Of a stretch of DNA of 64,000 nt, positions 1-51,162 are shown in pieces (position 1 is the first letter of the stretch; each line of letters opens with the position of its first letter). Source of the DNA: Candidatus Nomurabacteria bacterium RIFCSPHIGHO2_12_FULL_42_19 (GTDB lineage Bacteria > Patescibacteriota > Minisyncoccia > Phycocordibacterales > UBA9973); contig MFUM01000004.1 in assembly GCA_001786955.1 (NCBI GenBank), positions 4,457 through 68,456 of the forward strand. The letters are read 5' to 3'. A program made the position numbers and the translations under genes. The notes under the pieces are model-generated. The model worked only from the letters and a program-made list of their open reading frames with translations, did no database searches and was not told the origin of the DNA.

Positions 1-431
1 AGCTGGCCGCGAAAATCGGAAATATACGGCAGGCGGTCCCGGTCAAGCACATTAACAAATATTATGACTTTGCCCGGCCCGAAAATGTCGGACGGCAGGA
101 AACGGATACTGCCCCAGTCAATAAGCAGGCGCAGGTCGGATTCATGCTGCTGGCTGAAACCGCGGATAGAGGAGCCGTCAAAGGTCAGATTATTCGCCGA
201 GCCAAGCAGAAATTTTTTATCATAATCAAGCATATGAAAGCGGCCTTCCAGGTCCGTAAAGCAAAGCGTCACCGCCTTGATTCGTTTTTCTTTTTGCAGG
301 TATGCGCGATATTCTTTTTCAAGTTCCGCCGAGCTGGCCTTCTCCGCTCTATCTTGAGCGCGCAGGTTCATGGCCTCAAGCTCCCCGTAAGGAATTTCCA
401 AAAAGTTTTTCAATGCTTTATTATTTTCCAT
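1..431 (-). CDS. glnA: Glutamine synthetase, N-terminal fragment (5' partial; continues past the window edge), probably type III
   Basis: Hand translation of the minus strand from the ATG at 431 gives MENNKALKNFLEIPYGELEAMNLRAQDRAEKASS...TFDGSSIRGFSQQHESDLRLLI. FDGSS-x8-ESD is the glutamine synthetase N-terminal (beta-grasp) signature. It is absent from the ORF track because there is no stop codon inside the window. Confidence 0.7.
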   Translation of the reverse strand, partial: MENNKALKNFLEIPYGELEAMNLRAQDRAEKASSAELEKEYRAYLQKEKRIKAVTLCFTDLEGRFHMLDYDKKFLLGSANNLTFDGSSIRGFSQQHESDLRLLIDWGSIRFLPSDIFGPGKVIIFVNVLDRDRLPYISDFRGQ

Positions 432-478
432 TGATTTTGCAAAATCACGTCGCGCAAACTCAATTAAAGCGCGACGCT
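432..478 (-). promoter_or_regulatory. Conserved 5' structured motif (copy 1). In sense orientation: GCGTCGCGC stem - loop - TTGCGCGACG, then the palindrome TGATTTTGCAAAATCA, then ATG of the GS gene
   Basis: The same architecture recurs at 4339-4420, 12259-12307 and 63274-63330. The palindrome is perfect at 16 bp. Confidence 0.5.
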
Positions 479-1656: not shown

Positions 1657-3060
1657 CTATTTAGGATCTCCGTTCCAGCCGAAAAGTTTCCCAATAGAAT
1701 CCGCGCTCTCGCGTTTGCGGGCGATTTTAATCATCCCGTCCCGGGCAATAATTTTTAGCGGTGTCGCCAGAAGACAATGATGCGAAGCCAGGCCGTCTTG
1801 ATACGCACCGGTATCCAAGACCGCCACAAACTGGTCCTGGTTGTCATGAAGCTTCGGCAAAAGAATATAATTTCCCCCAGCTGTGTATTTATCATCTGAA
1901 TCGCAAGTGCTCCCCGCTAGCCAGGTTGTTTTCAGGGCGCCATGCATATTGTTTGCCGGAATGACGTGGAACTTTTGGTGTATAGCCCAAGTATCCTTAA
2001 TGTCGTTCATAAAAGATCCGTCAATAATATACCAGGCTTTGGCATTCGCTTTCGGTATAAATTTTTTGGAAAGCACTTTGTAAATCGTCATTTCTGCCGG
2101 AGCCACGATGTATTGCCCCCACTCTACTATAAGATTTGGATGCCTGATTCCCGCTTTGTCTGATAAATTTTTAAGTATTTTGATAATCTTACTGGAAACT
2201 CCTTTAGCGGTATAAAATTTTTTCTTTTCATAAGGAATGCCAAATCCGCCGCCAATGTCCAGCGTATCAAGCGAAGGATGGATTTTTTGCAATTGTATAT
2301 ACATACTAAAAGCATGCTTTATGCCGTTTAAAATACTTTTTTGTGTTTTAATCTGCGACCCCAGATGGTAATGCATCACTTTAAGGTTTTTCATTTTGTT
2401 TAATTCAAGAGCATCTTTTTCTGAAAGTCCGAAACGGTCAAATTTTTTATCCCAATGCGAATCGGTTTTAATATTCAAATCTATCCGAGCTCCGATGTCG
2501 CCTTTATATTTTGAAAGCCTTTCAATTTCATCCAGACTTTCTATAATCGGCACAATATTCATACCTTTAGCGCGAAGTTCTTCTATTAAATCCAAATACT
2601 GGTCGGTTTTCGGGCCGTTGCAAAGTACGCGGATTTTGCTGTTGAATTTCTCTCCTTCCCAAAGTTTCTTTACAATCCAAAGCTCGTTGGCGGATGTCGC
2701 TTCCAGATTGGCGCCCTCGGAAAGGAGTGAAAGGATAAATTCCTTATTTTGATTCACTTTCATTGGATAGTGATAGAAAAATTTCCCCCGATAGCCGTAT
2801 ATTTTCATATAGGCTTGAAAATAGCCAATCAAGTCTTTTAATCTGTCTTCAATGATAAAAGGGAAAATTACCTGCAGTGGCGTGCCATATTTATACGCCA
2901 GGTCGCTTAAATTATAAATGTGATGGCCTTCAGTGGCTGTCAGTTCGCCGTCCTTATTGACACCGAAAAACTGGGTGTTGAATTCATCCGCTCCGAGCTT
3001 CCAAAATTTCTTCCAATTTTTCTGCGGTCTTTTGGGCTTTTTGGGTTTTTTCTTCGGCAT
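1657..3060 (-). CDS. PLP-dependent decarboxylase of the Orn/DAP/Arg decarboxylase fold, arginine decarboxylase (SpeA)-like
   Basis: YPMKVNQ (SpeA YPVKVNQ), EATSANEL and DIGGGFG motifs are present. The N-terminus is Lys-rich. 467 aa. Confidence 0.6.
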   Translation of the reverse strand: MPKKKPKKPKRPQKNWKKFWKLGADEFNTQFFGVNKDGELTATEGHHIYNLSDLAYKYGTPLQVIFPFIIEDRLKDLIGYFQAYMKIYGYRGKFFYHYPMKVNQNKEFILSLLSEGANLEATSANELWIVKKLWEGEKFNSKIRVLCNGPKTDQYLDLIEELRAKGMNIVPIIESLDEIERLSKYKGDIGARIDLNIKTDSHWDKKFDRFGLSEKDALELNKMKNLKVMHYHLGSQIKTQKSILNGIKHAFSMYIQLQKIHPSLDTLDIGGGFGIPYEKKKFYTAKGVSSKIIKILKNLSDKAGIRHPNLIVEWGQYIVAPAEMTIYKVLSKKFIPKANAKAWYIIDGSFMNDIKDTWAIHQKFHVIPANNMHGALKTTWLAGSTCDSDDKYTAGGNYILLPKLHDNQDQFVAVLDTGAYQDGLASHHCLLATPLKIIARDGMIKIARKRESADSIGKLFGWNGDPK

Positions 3061-3094
3061 CTAAGTAAAAATAATTATAGCAAGTGCTGATAAA

Positions 3095-3125
3095 ATGTAA
3101 ACCCCCACATCTATATATAAGTGTG
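3095..3125 (-). terminator. Hairpin (cccccacat...gtgtggggg) downstream of tgt; probable terminator
   Basis: 9-bp GC-rich stem followed by a T-rich tract on the minus strand. Confidence 0.4.
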
Positions 3126-3138
3126 GGGGTAAAGGATT

Positions 3139-4338
3139 TTAGGATTTTAAATACCCTTTTAAAAATTCCTTCTTGAATTCAAAGAAGTTGTCGTCCAGGA
3201 TTGACTGCCGGATTTTTTTAACTAAATTAATAATGAAATACAAATTATGTATTGAAGCAAGAGTTGCGGCCAGTATTTCTTTACCATGAAAGAGATGGGC
3301 GAGGTAAGCGCGGGAATAGTTCGCGCATAAATAGCATTTACAATTCTCTTCAACCGCATTAAAGTCATTTTTATATTTAGCATTCATTATATTTATTTTC
3401 CCATTTTTGGTATAGAGTGAGCCATTGCGGGCATTGCGCGTCGGCGCAACGCAATCAAACAAATCCACGCCGTTTTCTATGCCCATAAACAAATCCTCCG
3501 GCTCGCCGATGCCGAGCAGATGCCGAGGCTTTTCTTCCGGCAATATTTCATTTACCCATCGGACCGCTGTCTGCATATCTTCCTTGGCAAAAGAGCCGCC
3601 GATACCAAAACCGTCAAAATCTAAACTCTTTAGAAAGTTTGCCGATTTTTTTCGGAGCGTTTCGTCTCTTCCGCCTTGCACAATACCGAACAATGCAATG
3701 TTGTTTTTTTTATTTAATTTATCATGTTCTTCTAAACTTCTTTTTGCCCAATTATGAGTTCGTTCCAACGCCTCTGTCTGATATCTAAAATCTTCCGCCG
3801 GGCTGGTGCACTCGTCAAAAGCAAAAATTATATCTGCGCCCAGGTTGTGCTGGATTTGGATTGATTTTTCCGGAGTGATGTAATGGATGCTGCCGTCCAA
3901 GTGCGATTTAAAAGAAACCCCGTCCTGTCCGATTTTAGCCAAACGAGGAGCACCAGAGTCATCAAAGCGTTCCGGAATCAACAAGGACGAATCGGTAATT
4001 TTTGTGATTTTAGAAACCTGCTTACCATAAGCTGCGCCCAGGGAAAAAACCTGAAAGCCGCCGGAATCGGTAATTATAGGGCTATTCCAATTCATAAATT
4101 TATGCAGACCGCCCGCTTTGGCTACCAACTCATCACCAGGCTGTAAATATAAATGATAGGTATTGGCTAAAATTACTTCAGCTCCCAGATCCCTAGCCTG
4201 CTCGGGGGTCAGAGCTTTCACGCTGGCTTTCGTGCCGACCGGCACAAAAGCCGGAGTCTGAATAACTCCATGCGCTGTAGTGATGACTCCCACCCTTCCT
4301 AAACAATTTTCCAATTTTTTCTCTATTTTGAAATGCAT
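3139..4338 (-). CDS. tgt: Queuine tRNA-ribosyltransferase
   Basis: QTPAFVPVGT, DECTSP and the C-terminal zinc site CYLCANYSRAYLAHLF are present. 399 aa. Confidence 0.9.
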   Translation of the reverse strand: MHFKIEKKLENCLGRVGVITTAHGVIQTPAFVPVGTKASVKALTPEQARDLGAEVILANTYHLYLQPGDELVAKAGGLHKFMNWNSPIITDSGGFQVFSLGAAYGKQVSKITKITDSSLLIPERFDDSGAPRLAKIGQDGVSFKSHLDGSIHYITPEKSIQIQHNLGADIIFAFDECTSPAEDFRYQTEALERTHNWAKRSLEEHDKLNKKNNIALFGIVQGGRDETLRKKSANFLKSLDFDGFGIGGSFAKEDMQTAVRWVNEILPEEKPRHLLGIGEPEDLFMGIENGVDLFDCVAPTRNARNGSLYTKNGKINIMNAKYKNDFNAVEENCKCYLCANYSRAYLAHLFHGKEILAATLASIHNLYFIINLVKKIRQSILDDNFFEFKKEFLKGYLKS

Positions 4339-4420
4339 TGATTTTGCGAAATCACGTCACGCAAGTTAATTCTGATGAATTATGTCGTGTTCTCCTTTAA
4401 AACACGACCGGCGCGACGCT
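4339..4420 (-). promoter_or_regulatory. Conserved 5' structured motif (copy 2) abutting the tgt start codon
   Basis: In sense orientation: AGCGTCGCGCC - internal hairpin (gtcgtgtt...aacacgac) - TTGCGTGACG - TGATTTCGCAAAATCA - ATG. Same layout as 432-478. Confidence 0.5.
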
Positions 4421-4421
4421 T

Positions 4422-5264
4422 CTATATTTCCACTTCCACGAATTTTAACTCCTGAATATTGACCGGGCTGGAAAGCAACGCTTTGGCAAAAGGATTGCGT
4501 GGGTCAGAGATTATCTTTTCAACAACAGCCAAAAGCAGAGAATTAATGCCGGGCAAAACCACCTGATCTCCTTTTTGCAAGATAAAATCTTTAGGCATTG
4601 TCATTTCAAAATTTCCCCCGCCCCGCCCGACAACTTCCATAAAAACATCCCCGCCTGCGTGAGCAGACCGACCCGCAATTATAGCCTGCGTTCTTTCTCC
4701 TGCATTTGAAAACAAAATTACTTTGGAAGAATTGTCATAAGCAAGGCTCACGCGCCCAATCGGCACATTACCTAGGGCAAAAACTATATTCCCCGTTTTT
4801 ACTCCCCTGTTCGTGCCCGTATCAATGATAAGCGTATCATAAGGAGATTGATTCGGTTTGGACAAAATAGCGGATAAAATCATCTTAACCTTTTCGTTTT
4901 TCCCTGCCTTGCCGACAGGCAGACGTCCTAAAATTTCCTTGATTTTTAAATTCTCATCCAAAATAGAATTGTAATTCGCTGTTCTTGCTTCTTGTTCGTT
5001 CAGTCTCAATTTCAAATCTTCATTTTCCCAAAGAAGAGATTTTTTGGAATAAAAATAGGAACCGGCATCTGATAATTTTCCATTTATGTTATTTCCTAAA
5101 ATTAAAACCGGGCGGAAAAGCCATCCGCTCATATAGGACAGCCCGTTAAAAATTCCCGTTCTGAAATAAAATAAAACAATCAAAACAAAAGCGCTAAGCG
5201 CAATATTTAAAAATTTTTTTCTTTTATTTTTTTTATCTAGGAGGTAGCTCATCTTGGTTGCCAA
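4422..5264 (-). CDS. mreC: Rod shape-determining protein MreC
   Basis: N-terminal TM segment, a coiled-coil segment, then a beta-rich domain. It lies immediately downstream of mreB and overlaps it by 32 nt. Confidence 0.7.
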   Translation of the reverse strand: MATKMSYLLDKKNKRKKFLNIALSAFVLIVLFYFRTGIFNGLSYMSGWLFRPVLILGNNINGKLSDAGSYFYSKKSLLWENEDLKLRLNEQEARTANYNSILDENLKIKEILGRLPVGKAGKNEKVKMILSAILSKPNQSPYDTLIIDTGTNRGVKTGNIVFALGNVPIGRVSLAYDNSSKVILFSNAGERTQAIIAGRSAHAGGDVFMEVVGRGGGNFEMTMPKDFILQKGDQVVLPGINSLLLAVVEKIISDPRNPFAKALLSSPVNIQELKFVEVEI

Positions 5265-16540: not shown

Positions 16541-19500
16541 CTTCTCTATTTTTAAATCCGGTTCCGGCCGGAATCAGTCGTCCAATAATGACATTTTCTT
16601 TAAGCCCCCGCAGAAAATCCACTCCGCCTTTAATGGCATTTTCAATCAGGACGCGATTGGTGTTTTGGAATGAAGCGGCCGAGAGCCAGCTCTTGGTGCG
16701 GAGTGATACTTCGGTAATGCCGAGCACTACTGTTTCGGCTTTTGCTTCTTTTCCGTTTAAGTCGGCGACTCTTTGATTTTCTTCTATAAAGGCCGTATTC
16801 TCAACGATATCGCCGATTGAAAAATTAGTTTCACCTGCATCTTTTATTTTTCGCCGAGAAAACATCTGACGAATAATTATTTCCGTATGCTTTCTGGATA
16901 TTGAGGCACTTTGAAGCTCATAAACTTTGTTTATTTCAGTAATGATATATTCTTCAACCAATTCTTTATTGCCCAATTTAAACATTTCGGCAATATCGGC
17001 CGATCCATCGGTCAAAAGCTGTCCTTTTTTTACCTGCTCCCCTATTTTTACGATTGGCATTCTACGGAAAGCCACAGTGTATTCCATCTCGTTTTTCTTG
17101 CCGTCAACCTTGCTGTCAGATAGAATTTTAATTATTTTCTCTTTCCCGTCTTTAGCTTTGATTTCTATTATCTCGCCATCGGTCTCGGAAATAACTGCGG
17201 GATTTTTTGGAATCCTTCTTTCAAATATTTCCTCAACACGCGGCAGACCGGTCGTGATATCGGTTCCCGCCACGCCTCCGGCATGAAAGGTGCGAAGCGT
17301 AAGCTGCGTGCCGGGCTCACCGATAGCTTGAGCCGCGATAATGCCGACAGCCTCGCCTTGTTCCACCAGATGATTGCGCCCCAAATCAAGCCCGTAACAC
17401 ATCACGCAAAGACCGTGCACCGTTTTGCACGTAAGCGGAGAACGGACGAATACTTCCGCAAAACCCGCTCCTTCAATATTGTATGCTTCTTCTTTGGTAA
17501 TCAAAAATCCTTTCTTGTAGATGACCTTGCCGTTTTTGTCTTTAAGGTCGCCTGCGAGTATGCGTCCCCGGATGTTTTTTGAAAGCGGAATTTCAATTCC
17601 GGAAATATTTTCCCTGGTAACTATTTTTCCTTCTTTCGTGCCGCAATCCTCTTCGGTAATCACAACATCCTGCGCCACATCCACCAATCTTCGAGTCAAA
17701 TACCCGGCTTTCGCGGTGTTAAGCGCCGTGTCGGAAGCGCCTTTTCTGGCGCCATGAGTGATAACGAAATATTCAATCGGGGAAAGTCCTTCTTGATAGC
17801 AAGGAATAATCGGAAATTCCAGTGTCTTGCCCTGGTTATTTTGAATAAGACCAATCATGCCTATCATTTGTACTAGAGAACTCATCGTACCGCGGGCTCC
17901 GGAAGTAACCAAGTCAAAGGTAGAGCCATTCTGGTCAAGAGTGCCTGGCAGGACTTTTTCCAAATCTCTCTTGGTATGGGTCCAGATTTCAATAATTTTC
18001 TGGTATTTTTCTTCTTCGGAAAGCAAACCTTCGCTCCATTGGGCCAATACTGCTTCTTCCAGTTTTTTACCTTGTTCTATAATCTTCGGCTTTAAGGGAG
18101 AAACCTCCACATTGTCCAATCCCCAAGTAGTGCCGGAAACTGTCGAGTATTTGAAGCCGAATTCCTTGATTTTATCCAGAATAGGAGGAGTATTGTCCAC
18201 GCCGCAGTGTATGATAAGCTCGTCCAAGAGCGAGGATAATCTTTTTTGGTTCATTTCATCGTTCACGTAGGTAAAATCGTTAGGCAAAATGCTGTTGAAA
18301 AGAAGTTTCCCCACAGAGGTCTCAAAAATTCCCCCGTCAAACTTTCTATATTTGTGCGTATCGGTCGCGAGAACTTTTATTTTGGCGCGCAGAGACACAA
18401 CTCCGTAATCATGGGCGGTAATAGCGGTATTCGGACTGGAAAAATATTTTCCTTCTCCTTTTTCCCCATCGACAGATTTGGTCATCCAATAAGCCCCTAG
18501 GACAATATCCCGGCTTGAATGTACTATCGGGTCTCCATTTTGCGGCTTGAGCAGGTTTTTATTGGCTGCCATTAATTCTCTGGCTTCCCATTGCGCTTCC
18601 TCAAGAAGCGGAACATAGACAGCCATCTGGTCTCCATCGAAGTCAGCGTTGAAAGCCTGGCAAACCAGGGGATGCACCTGAATAGCGTTGCCTTCAATTA
18701 AAATCGGATTAAAAGCCTGAATACCCAAGCGATGCAGGGTCGGCGCGCGGTTGAGCAGCACATATTTTCCCTGAATGACTTCTTCCAACATCGCCCAGAC
18801 TTCTCCGGTCCTCTCTTCTATAAGCTTGTTGGCTCCGCGGATATTGAATGCAAGTTCCGCCTGTAGAATTTTTGAAATTACGAATGGCCGGAAAAGCTCG
18901 AGCGCCATATGCTTCGGCAATCCGCATTGGTTGAGCTTGAGCTGGGGACCGACGACGATAACCGAGCGTCCCGAATAGTCTACGCGCTTTCCCAGCAAAT
19001 TCTGGCGAAAGAGGCCTTGTTTTGACTTTAGATTATCCGACAGGGATTTCAAGGGGCGTTTTTGGGACTGACTCATCGCCGCCGAATCGTTCTGCTTGGC
19101 AATCGAGTTGTCAATCAATGCGTCAACGGCTTCCTGAATGATTCTTTTTTCGTTTCGTAAAATTACATCCGGGGCATTAATTTCTTTCAATTTTTTCAAG
19201 CGATTGTTTCTATTTATCACCCGGCGATAAAGATCGTTCAAATCGGAAGTTGCGTGCCTGCCCCCGTCGAGAGCCACCATCGGGCGAAGTACCGGCGGAA
19301 TAACCGGAATAACCGTTAGAAACATCCATTCCGGCCTGATTCCCGCGTAAGTCATCGCGCGGATAAGGGAGAGCCTTTTTTGCAGTTTTTCTTTTTCAGC
19401 CGCGCTCGCTTTTTCCGCCATCTTCTCCGTGAGATGTTTTAATTTGTTTAAATCAAGATTCTTAAAAATAGAATAAATCGCCTCGGCACCGATATTGGCT

Positions 19501-20129
19501 TCAAAACAAGTACCGTATTTCAAAGAGTAATGATGGAAGGAAATTTCGTTCAATACTTTACCTTCGTAAATTTCTCCGATTTCTTTCTTGGTGATGGAAA
19601 GCAAAGTTTTCAGCTTCTCGCGGATGTCGTCATCAGCCGAATTTTTTAATTTGGTTTTATATTCCTTGTCCAGACCCGACAGAATATTTTCTTTTTCCTC
19701 TTCGTGAACCTTGGTAATGATATATCCGGCAAAATAGATTACTTTTTCAAGATCGGAAACGGAAATATTCAGGAGAATGCTCATGCGGGAAGGCACTCCG
19801 CGCAGAAACCAAATATGCGAGACCGGAGTGGAGAGCTCAATGTGTCCCATGCGCTCCCGGCGCACGATAGAGCGCGTAACTTCGACTCCGCATTTTTCGC
19901 AAATGATGTCTTTGTAGCGAATTCGGCGGTATTTTCCGCAGTAACATTCATAATCTTTTTCCGGTCCGAAGATTTTCTCATCAAAAAGGCCTCCGCGCTC
20001 GGACCGTCCGGTGCGGTAATTTATTGTTTCCGGTTTGGTAACTTCCCCAAAAGACCATTCTTTTATCTGCTCCGGAGACGCGAGCCGGAGCGCGATGCGG
20101 TCAAATTCAGTTGTGTTGAGAGTTTTCAT
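16521..20129 (-). CDS. rpoC: DNA-directed RNA polymerase subunit beta'
   Basis: Zinc finger [23 protein letters not shown] and the NADFDGDQM catalytic motif are present. 1202 aa. Confidence 0.97.
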
Positions 20130-25145: not shown

Positions 25146-27167
25146 ATGAAGGAATCTAAAAACAAATTGCAAGGTATTATTTCCATCTCTTCAAAAGGCA
25201 CAGGCTATGTGGCAACCGGAGAAGTGAAGAATAAGGGCCAGGACCCGGAAATTGATTTCCAGCATTTAAATACCGCCCTGCACGGAGATATGGTAGAGAT
25301 AATCTTGCACCCGAAAGGTAAAAATCGCCAAACTGCTGAAGTTTCAAAAATAATATCGCGCGCAAAAATGAATTTCGCGGGAGTTCTGGAAGAAGAAAAC
25401 AAAATGTTCTTCCTGAAACCGGACGATACAAAAATGTATACAGATATTCTAATCCCAACCAAGTTTTTAAATAATGCGAAAGTTGGACAAAAGGTTTTTG
25501 TGGAAATAATTTCATGGAAAGATCCCCACAAGGCTCCGGAAGGAAAAGTAATAAAAGTTTTAGGCCGTCCGGGAGACAATGATACTGAAATGGAAAGTAT
25601 TGCGATAGAAAAAGGCTTTGATGCGAAACTTCCGCATAAAGTGGAAGAAGAAGCAAGGAAAATAAAGCAAAACGGCATTAAAGAAACCGACTATGCCGGA
25701 CGCAGAGATTTTCGCAAAACCCTGACCTTCACTATTGACCCCTCGGATGCGAAAGATTTTGATGATGCGATATCTTTCAGATTCCTCCCCTCCTTAAATA
25801 AGGAGGGGGCAGGGGGTGGTAATTCAAAAGACCACCCCGCCTCCGGCACCCCTCCTAAAAAAGGAGGGGAAGAGCAATATGAAGTCGGCATACACATCGC
25901 CGATGTCTCGCATTATGTAAAAATCGGCAGTGCTTTAGATGAAGAAGCGCGAGAAAGAGGAACTTCGGTATATTTGGTAGATAGGACGATACCAATGCTG
26001 CCGGAAACGCTTTCTAATGATTTGTGCTCTCTGGTGCCAAATAAAGACCGGCTTACTATGAGCGCAGTATTTATCATAGATAAAAATGCTCATGTAAAAA
26101 GCAAATGGTTCGGGCGCACGGTTATACATTCAAAAAAAAGATTTACTTACGAAGAAGCCGAGGAGTTAATAAAAAAATCCGCTGCGCCGTTCCATAAAGA
26201 ACTTTTTATCTTGAACAGCTTGGCAAAAAAATTAACCGGGGAAAGATTTGCGCAGGGCGCAATATCGCTTGACCAGGAAGAAGTAAAATTTGTTTTGGAT
26301 AAAAATGGAGTGCCGTTGAAAGTAATAAAAAAAGAGCGCGGCGATTCAAACAGGCTGATTGAGGAATTTATGCTCCTGGCAAATAAAAAAGTGGCGGAGG
26401 TCTTGTCTCCAAAAAATATAAAGGGTGTGAAAGATGAAGGCGTATCCATATACCGAGTGCACGATCTGCCGAGTAAGGAAAAAATGGCCGATCTGGCGTT
26501 TTTTTTGCGAAGTTTGGGACATAGAGTCTCCTTGCAGAACGGCCTTATCCCGACATATGAAATAAATAAGCTTCTAGAGAGTTTGGCCGGCAAAAATGAA
26601 GAAGATACGGTGCATCGCGCAGTTATCCGTTCTATGGCTAAAGCGCTTTATTCCACCAAAAATATCGGGCATTACGGTCTGGCTTTTCAATATTATACTC
26701 ACTTCACTTCCCCGATTAGGCGCTATCCGGACATCATGGTGCACAGACTTCTGGAAAAATTCCTCTCTGGCAAAAAAATAAAAAAGGAGGATTTAAAAGA
26801 GAAATTAATCGAATATGAAAAAATCGCCCTAAATGCATCCGAACAGGAAAAACGCGCCGCAGATGCCGAACGAGCTTCCATAAAATATAAACAAGTGGAA
26901 TATATGTCCAGATATCTGGGAAAAAGCTTCGACGGGGTAATCAGCGGGATAACCGAGTGGGGCATGTATGTGGAAGAACTAGAGACAAAATGCGAAGGTT
27001 TGGTGCGGGTACGTGATATGAATGACGATTTTTATATTTTCAATGAAAAAAAATTGGAATTAACCGGACAAAAAAAGAAAAAAAAGTACAGGCTCGGCGG
27101 CCGTGTCAAAATAAAAGTAAAATCGGTTGATTTGGAGAGAAAAACGATAGATTATATATTGACATGA
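25146..27167 (+). CDS. rnr: Ribonuclease R (RNB-family 3'-5' exoribonuclease with C-terminal S1 domain)
   Basis: RNB catalytic region (HIADVSHYV, DR..PMLPE) and a C-terminal S1 domain are present. The ATG at 25146 is the likely start, since the ORF-track start overlaps rpsP. It carries an in-frame family-A repeat insertion. Confidence 0.85.
   Translation: MKESKNKLQGIISISSKGTGYVATGEVKNKGQDPEIDFQHLNTALHGDMVEIILHPKGKNRQTAEVSKIISRAKMNFAGVLEEENKMFFLKPDDTKMYTDILIPTKFLNNAKVGQKVFVEIISWKDPHKAPEGKVIKVLGRPGDNDTEMESIAIEKGFDAKLPHKVEEEARKIKQNGIKETDYAGRRDFRKTLTFTIDPSDAKDFDDAISFRFLPSLNKEGAGGGNSKDHPASGTPPKKGGEEQYEVGIHIADVSHYVKIGSALDEEARERGTSVYLVDRTIPMLPETLSNDLCSLVPNKDRLTMSAVFIIDKNAHVKSKWFGRTVIHSKKRFTYEEAEELIKKSAAPFHKELFILNSLAKKLTGERFAQGAISLDQEEVKFVLDKNGVPLKVIKKERGDSNRLIEEFMLLANKKVAEVLSPKNIKGVKDEGVSIYRVHDLPSKEKMADLAFFLRSLGHRVSLQNGLIPTYEINKLLESLAGKNEEDTVHRAVIRSMAKALYSTKNIGHYGLAFQYYTHFTSPIRRYPDIMVHRLLEKFLSGKKIKKEDLKEKLIEYEKIALNASEQEKRAADAERASIKYKQVEYMSRYLGKSFDGVISGITEWGMYVEELETKCEGLVRVRDMNDDFYIFNEKKLELTGQKKKKKYRLGGRVKIKVKSVDLERKTIDYILT
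25781..25878. repeat. GC-rich palindromic element, family A (double unit: cctcccctccttaaataaggaggggg ... cacccctcctaaaaaaggagggg), in frame inside rnr
   Basis: Shares an identical 22-nt core (accaccccctgccccctcctta, reverse complement) with the element in pheS. The encoded peptide is LNKEGAGGGNSK. Confidence 0.65.
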
Positions 27168-50084: not shown

Positions 50085-50543
50085 TTAATCACAAATCGGG
50101 CCGGAAATATTACCTATTTCCCCTTTGGCGTTGCCTTGAGAATCAATACACCAATAATTGAAATTTCCTTCTTTGCTTTTTAGTAAAGCCGAAACCACAT
50201 AGGCTGAGGGATTAGCAGCACAGGTTGGCATTGTCCCGCCACTTTGTTTTTGCGCTTCCAGTATCGCTGCCCAAATTACAGTATTGCTAAATGGCGTACC
50301 GGCAGTCTGAGCGCAAGGTCCGATACTATGAGAATCAGTCCCATAAGCATTCGGAATATTATTCAAATACAACAACTCCGTTTGCTGCATTACGGTCCTA
50401 AGATTTGTTTTAACTCCGGCATTTGCCCCTTTGGCTCTTGAAGCGGAAGTGGAAGTTAGTATTACTCCGGTCAAAATAGCAATAATCGCGACAACGACCA
50501 ATAATTCAATTAACGTGAAACCTCGTTTAAAATTAGTTTTCAT
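50085..50543 (-). CDS. pilA: Type IV pilin (PilA-like)
   Basis: [24 protein letters not shown] class III leader. The likely start is the internal ATG at about 50543. Confidence 0.8.
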   Translation of the reverse strand: MKTNFKRGFTLIELLVVVAIIAILTGVILTSTSASRAKGANAGVKTNLRTVMQQTELLYLNNIPNAYGTDSHSIGPCAQTAGTPFSNTVIWAAILEAQKQSGGTMPTCAANPSAYVVSALLKSKEGNFNYWCIDSQGNAKGEIGNISGPICD

Positions 50544-50607
50544 AAATTTATCTTTCCTATTAAAAGGACTTTCTAATCCATTTATTATACCAAACCAAAC
50601 AAGCAAA

Positions 50608-50665: not shown

Positions 50666-51112
50666 TTATGAACATACGCCAACTGTTGGTACGGTGTTAT
50701 AGGCCTTTACCCATCCAGAGTTATCTACGCACCATGTTCCAGTGCCTTTTAACGCAGGAACACTCATAGACCACTTTTGTCCACTTGAACCAACAGAACA
50801 AGATGCGGTGCTGCCAGATTGAGTATTAACTTGAACAATTGCTGCTGCAATAACAGGATCAGCAAACATACCAGTAGCTGTGGTACATGCGGTAGCGCCA
50901 AAATCAGAAGCAGCATATTTATTACCACCAGTGACACTATCATAATAAAGTTCTGCTTGTGCACGAACATTTGCCATATTCGCTTTTACCGCCGCATCCG
51001 CGCCCTTGGAACGCGCCGAGTTCAATGATGCAAGCACGACTGATGCCAATATGCCGATAATCGCCACGACCACCAAAAGTTCAATTAACGTGAAACCTTT
51101 ATTCATTTTCAT
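50666..51112 (-). CDS. pilA: Type IV pilin (PilA-like), second copy
   Basis: [26 protein letters not shown] leader with Cys pairs in the C-terminal D-region. Confidence 0.85.
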
Positions 51113-51162
51113 AATCTTAATTTCTAAACTAAATTAATAATAATTAATAATGCAATTTCGAC

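Follow-up and report, generated by a model that had tools for sequence, protein, structure and literature searches.

What is the structured sequence that stands directly in front of the start codons of four unrelated genes, and what does it do there? The question arises from a 64,000-nt stretch of DNA from Candidatus Nomurabacteria bacterium RIFCSPHIGHO2_12_FULL_42_19 (contig MFUM01000004.1, positions 4,457 to 68,456), referred to here as the window, with coordinates counted from its first nucleotide. A first-pass annotation of the window, made from the sequence alone, described four copies of such a motif. The four copies are found at the places described, they represent the same element, and further copies exist in other genomes. 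At each of the four loci the element is composed of two hairpins, oriented in the same direction as the next gene and ending 0–6 nt before its ATG. The copies, named A to D here, precede the genes for glutamine synthetase (GS, copy A), Tgt (copy B), a DsbA-like protein (copy C) and a 121-aa Gly/Ala-rich protein (copy D). As judged from comparative sequence analysis, the element is probably a transcribed RNA leader that acts in cis at the start codon, and our best reading is that it represents a family of dispersed, short, structured leader cassettes specific to Paceibacteria-type bacteria of the candidate phyla radiation (CPR).

The simple unit of the element is 47 nt long, and a nested variant measures 81 nt. 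In sense orientation the four sites show a 5′ arm, 5′-(G)CGYCGCGC, a loop of 11–14 nt ending in GAC(RR)UU, and a 3′ arm, GCGYGRC(R), which together form P1, a GC-rich stem of 7–9 bp with the GAC triplet included in its loop. P2 follows directly after the 3′ arm of P1 as an AU-rich hairpin of 6 bp with a YGCA loop (consensus YGAUUY-YGCA-RAAUCR), and the AUG comes 0–6 nt later. What had been described as a perfect palindrome, TGATTTCGCAAAATCA, is thus a 6-bp stem with a 4-nt loop. A 26-nt core of the element, TTGCGYGRCRYGATTYYGCARAATCR, has 4 matches in the window and 0 in 100 shuffles; the pattern was derived from the same four copies, and independent support comes from other genomes, with about 100 additional copies. 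The covariance model R1, whose 93 source copies include three from the window, was applied to the window with filters off and found only these four loci and an inner unit within copy B (4367–4411).

The further copies were collected by scanning species-representative genomes for a relaxed 25-nt pattern, which returned at least 116 stretches. Among the matches listed, 98 are in Patescibacteria, and the other 18 are chance matches in unrelated phyla without the 5′ arm of P1. The labels on the patescibacterial matches are Nomurabacteria, Paceibacterota, Kaiserbacteria, Adlerbacteria, Minisyncoccia and Parcubacteria, along with some automated 'Saccharibacteria' labels that we judged to be untrustworthy. 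In total, the matches listed hold at least about 100 copies in about 60 Paceibacteria-type CPR genomes, two of which have at least 8–9 copies each. The nested 81-nt subfamily is found before tgt in the window, before a different gene in locus L089 and before secE in locus L032, with about 90% identity, and the nested architecture is present in others besides these two loci. In the genome JBBTWP01 (L055 2470–2660 on the minus strand and 3030–3160 on the plus strand; also L010 and L069), tandem or partial units are followed by a terminator hairpin rather than by an ATG. One of these arrays has its own upstream TATACT box and may be a stand-alone small RNA with two units.

The element does not correspond to a described family in the sources searched. 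The comparison with Rfam proposed in the first-pass annotation was carried out and matched no family: with Rfam 15 at the gathering threshold, the whole window gave only three tRNAs, none of them at the element sites; the regions of copies B and C gave at E ≤ 10 only chance hits far below the gathering threshold, with no ribozymes among them; and eighteen other loci gave tRNA and rRNA hits only. The phage contigs of IMG/VR contained a single match, a chance one inside a high-GC coding region. Literature searches, including searches with literal sequences, returned no description of the element. It is therefore an undescribed family, akin to structured leader motifs and to co-transcribed dispersed repeats, with an unusual lock to the start codon.

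Evidence for the two stems comes from an alignment of 93 simple copies taken from the matches listed, which is also the basis of the position counts given below. In P1, pair 5–31 is U-A in 65 copies, C-G in 26 and U-G in one, and is never unpaired. In P2, pair 34–49 is U-A in 75, C-G in 16 and A-U in one, and pair 39–44 is U-A in 67, C-G in 24 and unpaired in one. Overall, pairing is kept in 94% of the cells, compared to 18–50% when the 3′ partners are slid. Both sides change in 5 of the 14 pairs, heavily in three of them (26, 17 and 24 cells), and cells with double changes number 72 against 19 in shuffles. The U-A and C-G states are both present among the four copies of the window. Such compensatory swaps within one window indicate selection on the pairing, and not on the sequence of a half-site or co-evolution with a protein site. 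The element thus shows the conserved structure by which a structured cis-acting RNA motif is recognized, and the first-pass view holds to this extent: the motif is conserved and structured, its P1 stem is real, and it abuts start codons of genes that are unrelated. Wobble cells are symmetric, with 12 G·U and 13 A·C when the optional eighth pair is excluded.

Apart from the pairing, the loop bases GAC of P1 and YGCA of P2 are conserved as sequence beyond what pairing needs. Covariation is also seen between the base following GAC and the one that opens the P2 loop (G-C in 49 copies, A-U in 24, G·U in one and A·C in two). They may form a loop-loop pair that would give the element a compact fold, but the signal is carried by only two or three subfamilies and may reflect shared descent instead.

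Folding of the individual copies with RNAfold agrees with the predicted stem in three of four cases. Compared to shuffles, copy A has a minimum free energy of -20 kcal/mol (z -2.9), copy B -30.5 kcal/mol (z -3.95) and copy C -21.4 kcal/mol (z -3.7), so that the stem is borne out over a z range of -2.9 to -4.0. Copy D, with z = 0, folds no better than its shuffles. Its P1 is imperfect (GCUACGC/GCGCGGC), with one A·C and one G·U.

The position of the element relative to genes is highly constrained. Among the 93 copies, P2 ends immediately at the start codon in 18, one nucleotide before it in 42 and 2–8 nt before it in 15; the remaining 18 have the start codon farther away or none within reach. 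The start codon is ATG in all 75 copies with a start within 8 nt, and copies adjacent to an ATG are always in sense orientation. The downstream genes include those for ribosomal proteins (rplL, rpsL, rplW, rpmI, rpsR and rplI), together with nusA, recA, gyrB, dnaG, atpD, atpG, pnp, secE, secF, ftsA and frr, the synthetase genes serS, cysS and tyrS, and genes for uracil-DNA glycosylase (UDG), glutaredoxin and small basic proteins. This set is diverse, mostly housekeeping and often highly expressed, and is no usual regulon. An element that plainly blocks initiation would be hard to tolerate in front of such genes.

Two observations bear on transcription of the element. For a third of the copies (33 of 93, copies B and D of the window among them), a co-directional open frame of 70 codons or more ends no farther than 30 nt upstream. 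In addition, 24 of 89 copies have a near-consensus -10 box in the 60 nt that precede P1, compared to 4–9 of 89 in control windows; its distance from P1 varies from 5 to 48 nt. From the upstream -10 boxes and the intercistronic copies we infer that the element is transcribed, either as a 5′ untranslated region (UTR) or as an intercistronic spacer; it would then be transcribed in the sense direction within the mRNA and act in cis on that mRNA. At locus L155 (1342–1388), an upstream open reading frame (ORF) of 268 aa reads through the 5′ arm of P1 (...NRRA) and stops at a TAA in the P1 loop, so the element can supply the stop codon of the preceding gene. At locus L101, 13 nt before the ATG of rpsR, ttcgtaaaatcaaATG is similar to TTCGCAAAATCAAATG, which combines the start codon with the 3′ half of P2, and the remainder of the element is missing; this site may be a decayed or partly deleted copy.

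The position of the element has to be seen against the way in which genes begin in these genomes. It had been pointed out that there is no room for an SD (Shine-Dalgarno) sequence between the element and the ATG. This is true, but not special to the element, as SD sequences are nearly absent from the genes of the window and of related genomes; several genes of the window have TGnTATAAT 6–8 bases before the ATG. Among 504 long ORFs of 98 related loci, 38 have an SD-like word in front, compared to 33 for a background window, and 83 have a TAnnnT that ends exactly 6 nt before the ATG, compared to 10–35 at other spacings. The lack of SD enrichment and the TAnnnT-N6 peak indicate that these genomes are SD-less and rich in leaderless mRNAs. 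The single 16S rRNA 3′ end that was captured (L051 3627–3680, minus strand) has GGAUUAAUUCAAU in place of GGAUCACCUCCUUA and is without the CCUCC of an anti-SD sequence. This agrees with the report that about half of the Parcubacteria are without an anti-SD sequence (Tsurumaki et al. 2022, PMC9297842). Words resembling AAUUAA or UUAAUU directly precede the ATG of many window genes and would be complementary to the L051 tail, which may reflect an alternative pairing or mere AT-richness. The element itself has just 4–5-nt AU matches to this one tail, located in the P1 loop or in P2. The simple copies contain no SD sequence; an AAAGGAG in the inner loop of copy B is about 60 nt upstream of the start, within a hairpin. 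The spacing of 0–1 nt between P2 and the ATG matches the leader length implied by the TAnnnT-N6-ATG promoters of the same genomes.

Comparison of orthologous loci indicates that the element is gained and lost. In 80 tgt orthologue loci collected from metagenomes (394 kb, 58–82% identity), no copy precedes tgt. Relatives with mreC-tgt synteny read ...GTGGAAGTGGAACAGTAGAAATAATG, with stop and start codons even overlapping in some; the distance from the mreC stop to the tgt ATG is 0–10 nt, with no element in between. The window reads ...GTGGAAGTGGAAATATAGAA, followed by 81 nt and then ATG. By R1, the 394 kb of tgt loci contain one copy (in L155), compared to 4 in the 64-kb window, and a further 8 kb of the contig beyond the window, a mobile region with resolvase and HTH (helix-turn-helix) genes, contains no more copies. 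Orthologues without the element begin in one of two ways. Some have a TAnnnT-N6-ATG promoter, as do the UDG gene in L029 and an NYN-domain gene in L049 and L084. In others, namely atpG, rpsR and tgt, a stop codon is close to the ATG (0–10 nt). The gyrB gene of the window, without the element, reads TGCTATAAT-N8-ATG, and in L024 gyrB is preceded by a promoter, 15 nt, the element and the ATG. The absence at orthologous sites implies that the element is acquired by insertion immediately 5′ of the start codon. One apparent case of recent presence/absence polymorphism, a short spacer in L202 among strains with identical Tgt, was rejected as a gene-calling artefact, the sequence being identical. The Tgt protein of the window is encoded on contig MFUF01000012.1 (GCA_001785625.1) and on groundwater metagenome contigs that are identical to it.

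Once present, the element is retained with little change. Orthologous copies are 85–93% identical (89–93% at nusA in four species, 85% at the UDG gene and 87% at the NYN gene), compared to 42–56% identity at the third codon positions of the adjacent genes. When the 18 positions fixed by the search pattern are removed from the nusA comparison, the free positions are still about 84% identical. Retained copies are held close to the family consensus and are far more conserved than synonymous sites. The ends of the element, GCGTCGCGC and GCAAAATCA, are not inverted repeats, so there are no terminal inverted repeats (TIRs), and no target-site duplications were found, k-mer matches between flanks being about as frequent as in shuffled pairs (6 vs 4.4 for k = 4; 2 vs 1.7 for k = 5). 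This absence, together with flanks that are AT-rich and of low complexity (an A-rich run and the ATG on the right), would fit a spread by microhomology-driven ectopic conversion between start regions, which is speculation on our part.

The four window copies illustrate these features. Copy A (432–477, minus strand; R1 60.9 bits, E 2.7e-14) is a simple unit with its P1 5′ arm at 469–477, loop at 456–468, P1 3′ arm at 448–455 and P2 at 432–447, and the ATG of GS (429–431, minus strand) follows P2 at 0 nt; the gene matches Pfam Gln-synt_N and encodes a full GS of 478 aa on the contig. Copy B (4339–4419, minus strand) is the nested 81-nt variant and scores 28.9 bits for its outer and 24.5 bits for its inner unit. 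What had been called a variable loop turns out to be a whole further unit placed inside the loop of P1: the outer P1 5′ arm at 4411–4419 is followed by an inner stem-loop at 4384–4408, an inner hairpin at 4368–4381, the outer P1 3′ arm at 4355–4362 and P2 at 4339–4354. The gene order here is mreB, mreC, tgt; the TAG stop of mreC (4422–4424, minus strand) is 2 nt upstream of the outer P1, and the ATG of tgt (4336–4338, minus strand; Pfam TGT, E 1e-142) is 0 nt after P2.

Copy C (12259–12303, plus strand; R1 65.3 bits, E 1.8e-15) is a simple unit with its P1 5′ arm at 12259–12265, loop at 12266–12279, 3′ arm at 12280–12286 and P2 at 12288–12303. The ATG of the DsbA-like thioredoxin gene, so labelled by Pfam, is at 12308–12310 (plus strand), 4 nt after P2. 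An extended -10-like sequence, TGcTACAAT (12221–12229, plus strand), 29 nt upstream of P1, is a candidate promoter judged by its sequence, and would place copy C in a 5′ UTR. Copy D (63280–63324, minus strand; R1 59 bits, E 8.8e-14), simple with the imperfect P1 mentioned above, has its P1 5′ arm at 63318–63324, 3′ arm at 63297–63303 and P2 at 63280–63295. The ATG of the 121-aa gene (63271–63273, minus strand) is 6 nt after P2, and the spacer, AAUCAA, is a partial repeat of the P2 end. The stop of an upstream co-directional DUF948 gene (63336–63338, minus strand) is 11 nt before P1, and this gene has its own leaderless-type promoter, TATAAT-N6-ATG. The first-pass gene labels stand for GS, TGT and the DsbA-like protein, which have Pfam support; the 'ytxH-like' label of the 121-aa protein does not, with no Pfam hit at E ≤ 1e-3. 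Since copy C is on the plus strand and copies A, B and D on the minus strand, orientation tracks the gene and not the replichore.

How would a leader of this kind work? The best overall explanation, to which we give somewhat less than an even chance, is a transcribed RNA leader cassette that can spread and that is cleaved. The folded element would be recognized and would mark the RNA for endonucleolytic cleavage at the 3′ foot of P2, so that the 5′ end of the downstream mRNA would become the AUG or one base before it. A ribosome adapted to leaderless mRNAs would then use this product, the upstream RNA would be left with a structured 3′ end, and promoter-distal or operon-internal genes would thereby be translated like leaderless genes. 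The spacing of 0–1 nt and the alternation with leaderless promoters or stop-start coupling make cleavage the simplest mechanism for the equivalence of these arrangements, and it would account for the exclusive use of ATG and for tolerance of the element before essential, highly expressed genes. In a more pointed form, the element would be a bacterial 'punctuation mark', a portable RNA signal that is cut exactly at the start codon, by an endonuclease or by itself as a new small ribozyme, and that has spread through the genome in the manner of a mobile element; we rate this form as rather unlikely. If it is true, bacteria that have lost the SD system could make leaderless mRNAs from promoter-distal and operon-internal genes, in analogy to mitochondrial tRNA punctuation.

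Several points weigh against this explanation. Cleavage at the foot of P2, taken by itself, is doubtful, every step of it being hypothetical. The pairs alone show neither which strand folds nor whether the hairpin is one of RNA or DNA. The element is patchy among relatives and so is no universal answer to initiation without SD sequences. About 19% of the copies are not beside an ATG; the atpD copies, kept in three species, are 8–28 nt away from theirs; and the tandem or partial units of JBBTWP01 end in terminators. It should also be mentioned that the search pattern fixed 18 positions and inflated the apparent conservation. On this last point, R1 found only about 7 extra diverged full copies without the exact pattern in 730 kb, which indicates that the family is truly tightly conserved.

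The same data can be read in other ways. The fold may stay intact and serve as a docking or operator site by the AUG, bound by the ribosome or a conserved RNA-binding protein, for SD-independent initiation or for joint repression of housekeeping genes. The conservation of GAC and YGCA beyond pairing is what such a site would show, the candidate loop-loop pair would make the fold compact, as is usual where a ligand or protein binds, the tight spacing suits a steric operator, and the atpD copies at 8–28 nt are easier to explain. On the other hand, a stable structure reaching to -1 or -2 should make it difficult to place the AUG in the P site if P2 does not melt, the loop-loop pair may just reflect two or three subfamilies, and the patchiness among relatives argues against a core initiation mechanism; on balance an intact site seems to us rather improbable. 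The hairpins could instead serve mobility, the element being mainly a selfish or neutral DNA repeat (REP-, MITE- or PATE-like) that is spread by a recombinase or by microhomology-driven ectopic conversion between AT-rich start regions, with its position a matter of tolerance or targeting. Presence and absence at orthologous sites, a density that is very uneven between related genomes, nested and tandem or partial copies, strand-neutral wobble counts and the L155 ORF that runs in and uses a stop in the P1 loop are all in keeping with this, as are the distinct subfamilies, including the 81-nt variant that is about 90% identical at non-orthologous genes in different genomes. It is nevertheless quite unlikely, in our estimation. 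There are no TIRs or target-site duplications, no transposase gene was seen among the 30 of about 57 window proteins checked with Pfam, and orthologous copies remain near the consensus while synonymous sites are close to saturation. The element is also tolerated before essential, highly expressed genes, and the finding of 65% of copies at 0–1 nt from the ATG, in sense only, would require extreme target specificity or functional selection. Of the first-pass suggestion of a mobile promoter-carrying repeat, the dispersed repeat, gained and lost, is upheld, and the promoter is not found inside the element.

A promoter or operator at the DNA level, with the palindrome as a dimeric transcription-factor site and leaderless or very short-leader transcripts, was the first-pass proposal. 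P2 is near-palindromic and is placed where a leaderless promoter would be, these genomes do use leaderless promoters, and the wobble counts are compatible with DNA. However, true leaderless genes show TAnnnT at -12 to -7, where the element copies read TCGCAA or CTGCAG without a -10-like hexamer; the real -10 boxes are upstream of P1 at variable distance, so the idea of a shared promoter for leaderless transcripts fails. One third of the copies are intercistronic, and the gene set forms no coherent regulon. The operator reading is contradicted by the two stems, both of which change in a compensatory way within this one window and across genomes, when operator half-sites would be conserved or vary independently. 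The sole HTH protein seen in the window (35968–36252) pairs with a Fic/Doc gene. We consider a DNA-level site highly improbable. Equally little weight is given to an intrinsic terminator or attenuator, in which P1 plus UGAUUU would stop some transcripts, possibly in a NusA-dependent manner, and tune operon polarity. A GC-rich P1 is indeed followed by a short U-containing tract, with which the 5′ flank can pair in copies A and C, and nusA itself carries the element in four species, but these four copies are one orthologous group and count as a single event. A terminator scan reports none of the four window copies whole (loop of 11–14 nt, only 3–4 U, tail UGAUUUY, where a loop of 3–8 nt and at least 5 U within 8 nt of the stem are expected), genuine terminators of the window have long U runs (e.g. 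600–629), and the conservation of P2 and its 0–1-nt spacing to the ATG would be left unexplained.

Other candidates were rejected on direct grounds. Sigma-54, extracytoplasmic function (ECF) and other alternative promoters do not fit the consensus when it is inspected for GG-N10-GC spacing and for -10/-35 words. A CsrA-type GGA site is excluded by the conserved loop triplet, which is GAC and not GGA, with UGAC, CGAC or UUGAG in many copies. For a tRNA-like or RNase P/Z substrate, there is no tRNA call at the sites, and the 5′ and 3′ strands exit from the junction between the helices and not from a helix end. A mini-ORF from an AUG in the P1 loop to the UGA of P2 is possible in only about half of the copies, the others having no AUG in the loop. 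A small self-cleaving ribozyme of known type was set aside, with no CUGANGA...GAAA-type core in the alignment and no Rfam ribozyme hit at E ≤ 10. Integron attC sites were dismissed as well: the RYYYAAC and GTTRRRY core sites are absent, and the housekeeping genes on either side keep their conserved order (mreB-mreC-tgt, the atp operon, rpsR).

The window encodes several RNA-processing proteins, namely a MazF/PemK-like endoribonuclease (16127–16540, minus strand), a NusB-NUDIX fusion (32079–33041, minus strand) and RNase III (31382–32110, minus strand). The RNase III gene adjoins that of the NusB-NUDIX fusion, and the MazF/PemK-like gene overlaps the 3′ end of a neighbouring 1202-aa ORF (16521–20129), which we take to be rpoC.

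Some known systems share part of these properties. Mitochondrial tRNA punctuation and Cas6/Csy4 involve a folded RNA that is cut at its edge, and punctuation yields leaderless or near-leaderless mRNAs. The 0–1-nt spacing to the AUG would match, as a working analogy only; the element is no tRNA, with no call at its sites, and no CRISPR repeat, and its cleavage is conjectural. The leaderless promoters of the same genomes occupy the same place before the ATG and alternate with the element at orthologous genes. The element differs from them in being GC-rich and structured, in lacking a -10 box and in having promoters or upstream genes before it. The MS2 coat-protein operator and the thrS operator each have a conserved hairpin by the AUG with sequence-specific loop bases, and are gene-specific single sites. 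The element, in contrast, is a near-identical module before dozens of unrelated genes, gained by insertion.

Among dispersed repeats, ERIC, the Neisseria Correia/NEMIS elements and mycobacterial MIRUs are gained and lost, transcribed within operons and form RNA hairpins, some of which are RNase targets. MIRUs are found between cistrons in gene orientation, with small ORFs that overlap the flanking stop and start, and Correia and ERIC have TIRs and target-site duplications. Our element differs in having no TIR, no target-site duplication and no stop overlapping the downstream ATG, and none of the ERIC, Correia/NEMIS and MIRU families is known to be locked within 0–1 nt of a start codon. Its consensus has one frame open, out of frame with the gene, and its copies are single except in one genome, which does not fit the MIRU definition. 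Nor is it a MITE, in view of the missing TIRs and target-site duplications. For an IS200/IS605-derived palindrome-associated element, a fixed target of 4–5 nt and a cognate Y1 transposase would also be expected. The hairpins and the lack of TIRs and target-site duplications fit; the only constant flank is the ATG (CAT on the other strand), with 3 nt, and the two hairpins are unrelated. REPs and BIMEs resemble the element as short GC-rich hairpin repeats dispersed between genes, with which they are co-transcribed, and in the constraint on their structure. CGTC-REPs combine a tag that is unpaired with a stem of 8–9 bp starting with A-T pairs, a loop of 4–5 nt and a CCA tail, and are mostly located downstream of genes as head-to-head dimers (Di Nocera et al. 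2013, PMC3733652). The 5′ arm of P1 also begins with CGTC; however, this CGTC is paired, the loop has 11–14 nt, a second, unrelated hairpin follows, and the copies are single and directly upstream of starts. Comparison of its alignment with the family description shows that the element does not belong to the CGTC/GTAG-tagged REPs.

The element is a concrete and testable handle on the question of how Parcubacteria without an anti-SD sequence initiate on genes that are not leaderless. It marks true start codons in CPR genomes, where gene callers read spurious ORFs through it (such as the 36-aa ORF in L202), and it shows that essential operons tolerate the precise insertion of a small element between one gene's stop codon and the ATG that follows. 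A new RNA-processing activity might also come to light through it. Should cleavage or ribosome docking be confirmed, the 47-nt unit would be an expression part for the emerging genetics of Patescibacteria.

A few other features of the window were noted. Between GS and the next gene, at 549–629 on the plus strand, a TATAAT (549–554) is followed by a perfect hairpin, CCCCTCAC...GTGAGGGG (567–592), and a strong two-way terminator (600–629). The arrangement suggests a gene for a small RNA of about 70 nt that is oriented divergently from GS; it has no Rfam hit. A second repeat family consists of GC-rich hairpins, CCCCTCCTTA..AAGGAGGGG, at 25783–25873, 33083–33111 and 40782–40823, in which 32 nt at 25798–25829 are 100% complementary to 40782–40813; these are probably terminator-like repeats. 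Inside the gene for NAD-dependent DNA ligase (44819–47014, minus strand), a 64-nt direct repeat (45578–45641 and 46226–46289) is 91% identical over copies 648 nt apart, and the adenylation domain is in two Pfam stretches in this region, which may reflect an internal duplication or insertion. Two neighbouring small genes whose products have pilin-like hydrophobic N-termini carry a 77-nt repeat at their 5′ ends (50472–50548 and 51047–51123, 73% identical); they adjoin an extended series of other minus-strand genes that presumably encode a type IV pilus. Finally, beyond the window start and downstream of GS, positions 12650–20468 of L203/L204 hold small hypothetical genes and a gene for an HTH_36 protein, along with a 536-aa serine resolvase that is present in the sister assembly and missing from the NCBI contig. 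This block is probably an integrated mobile element with strain-level variation.

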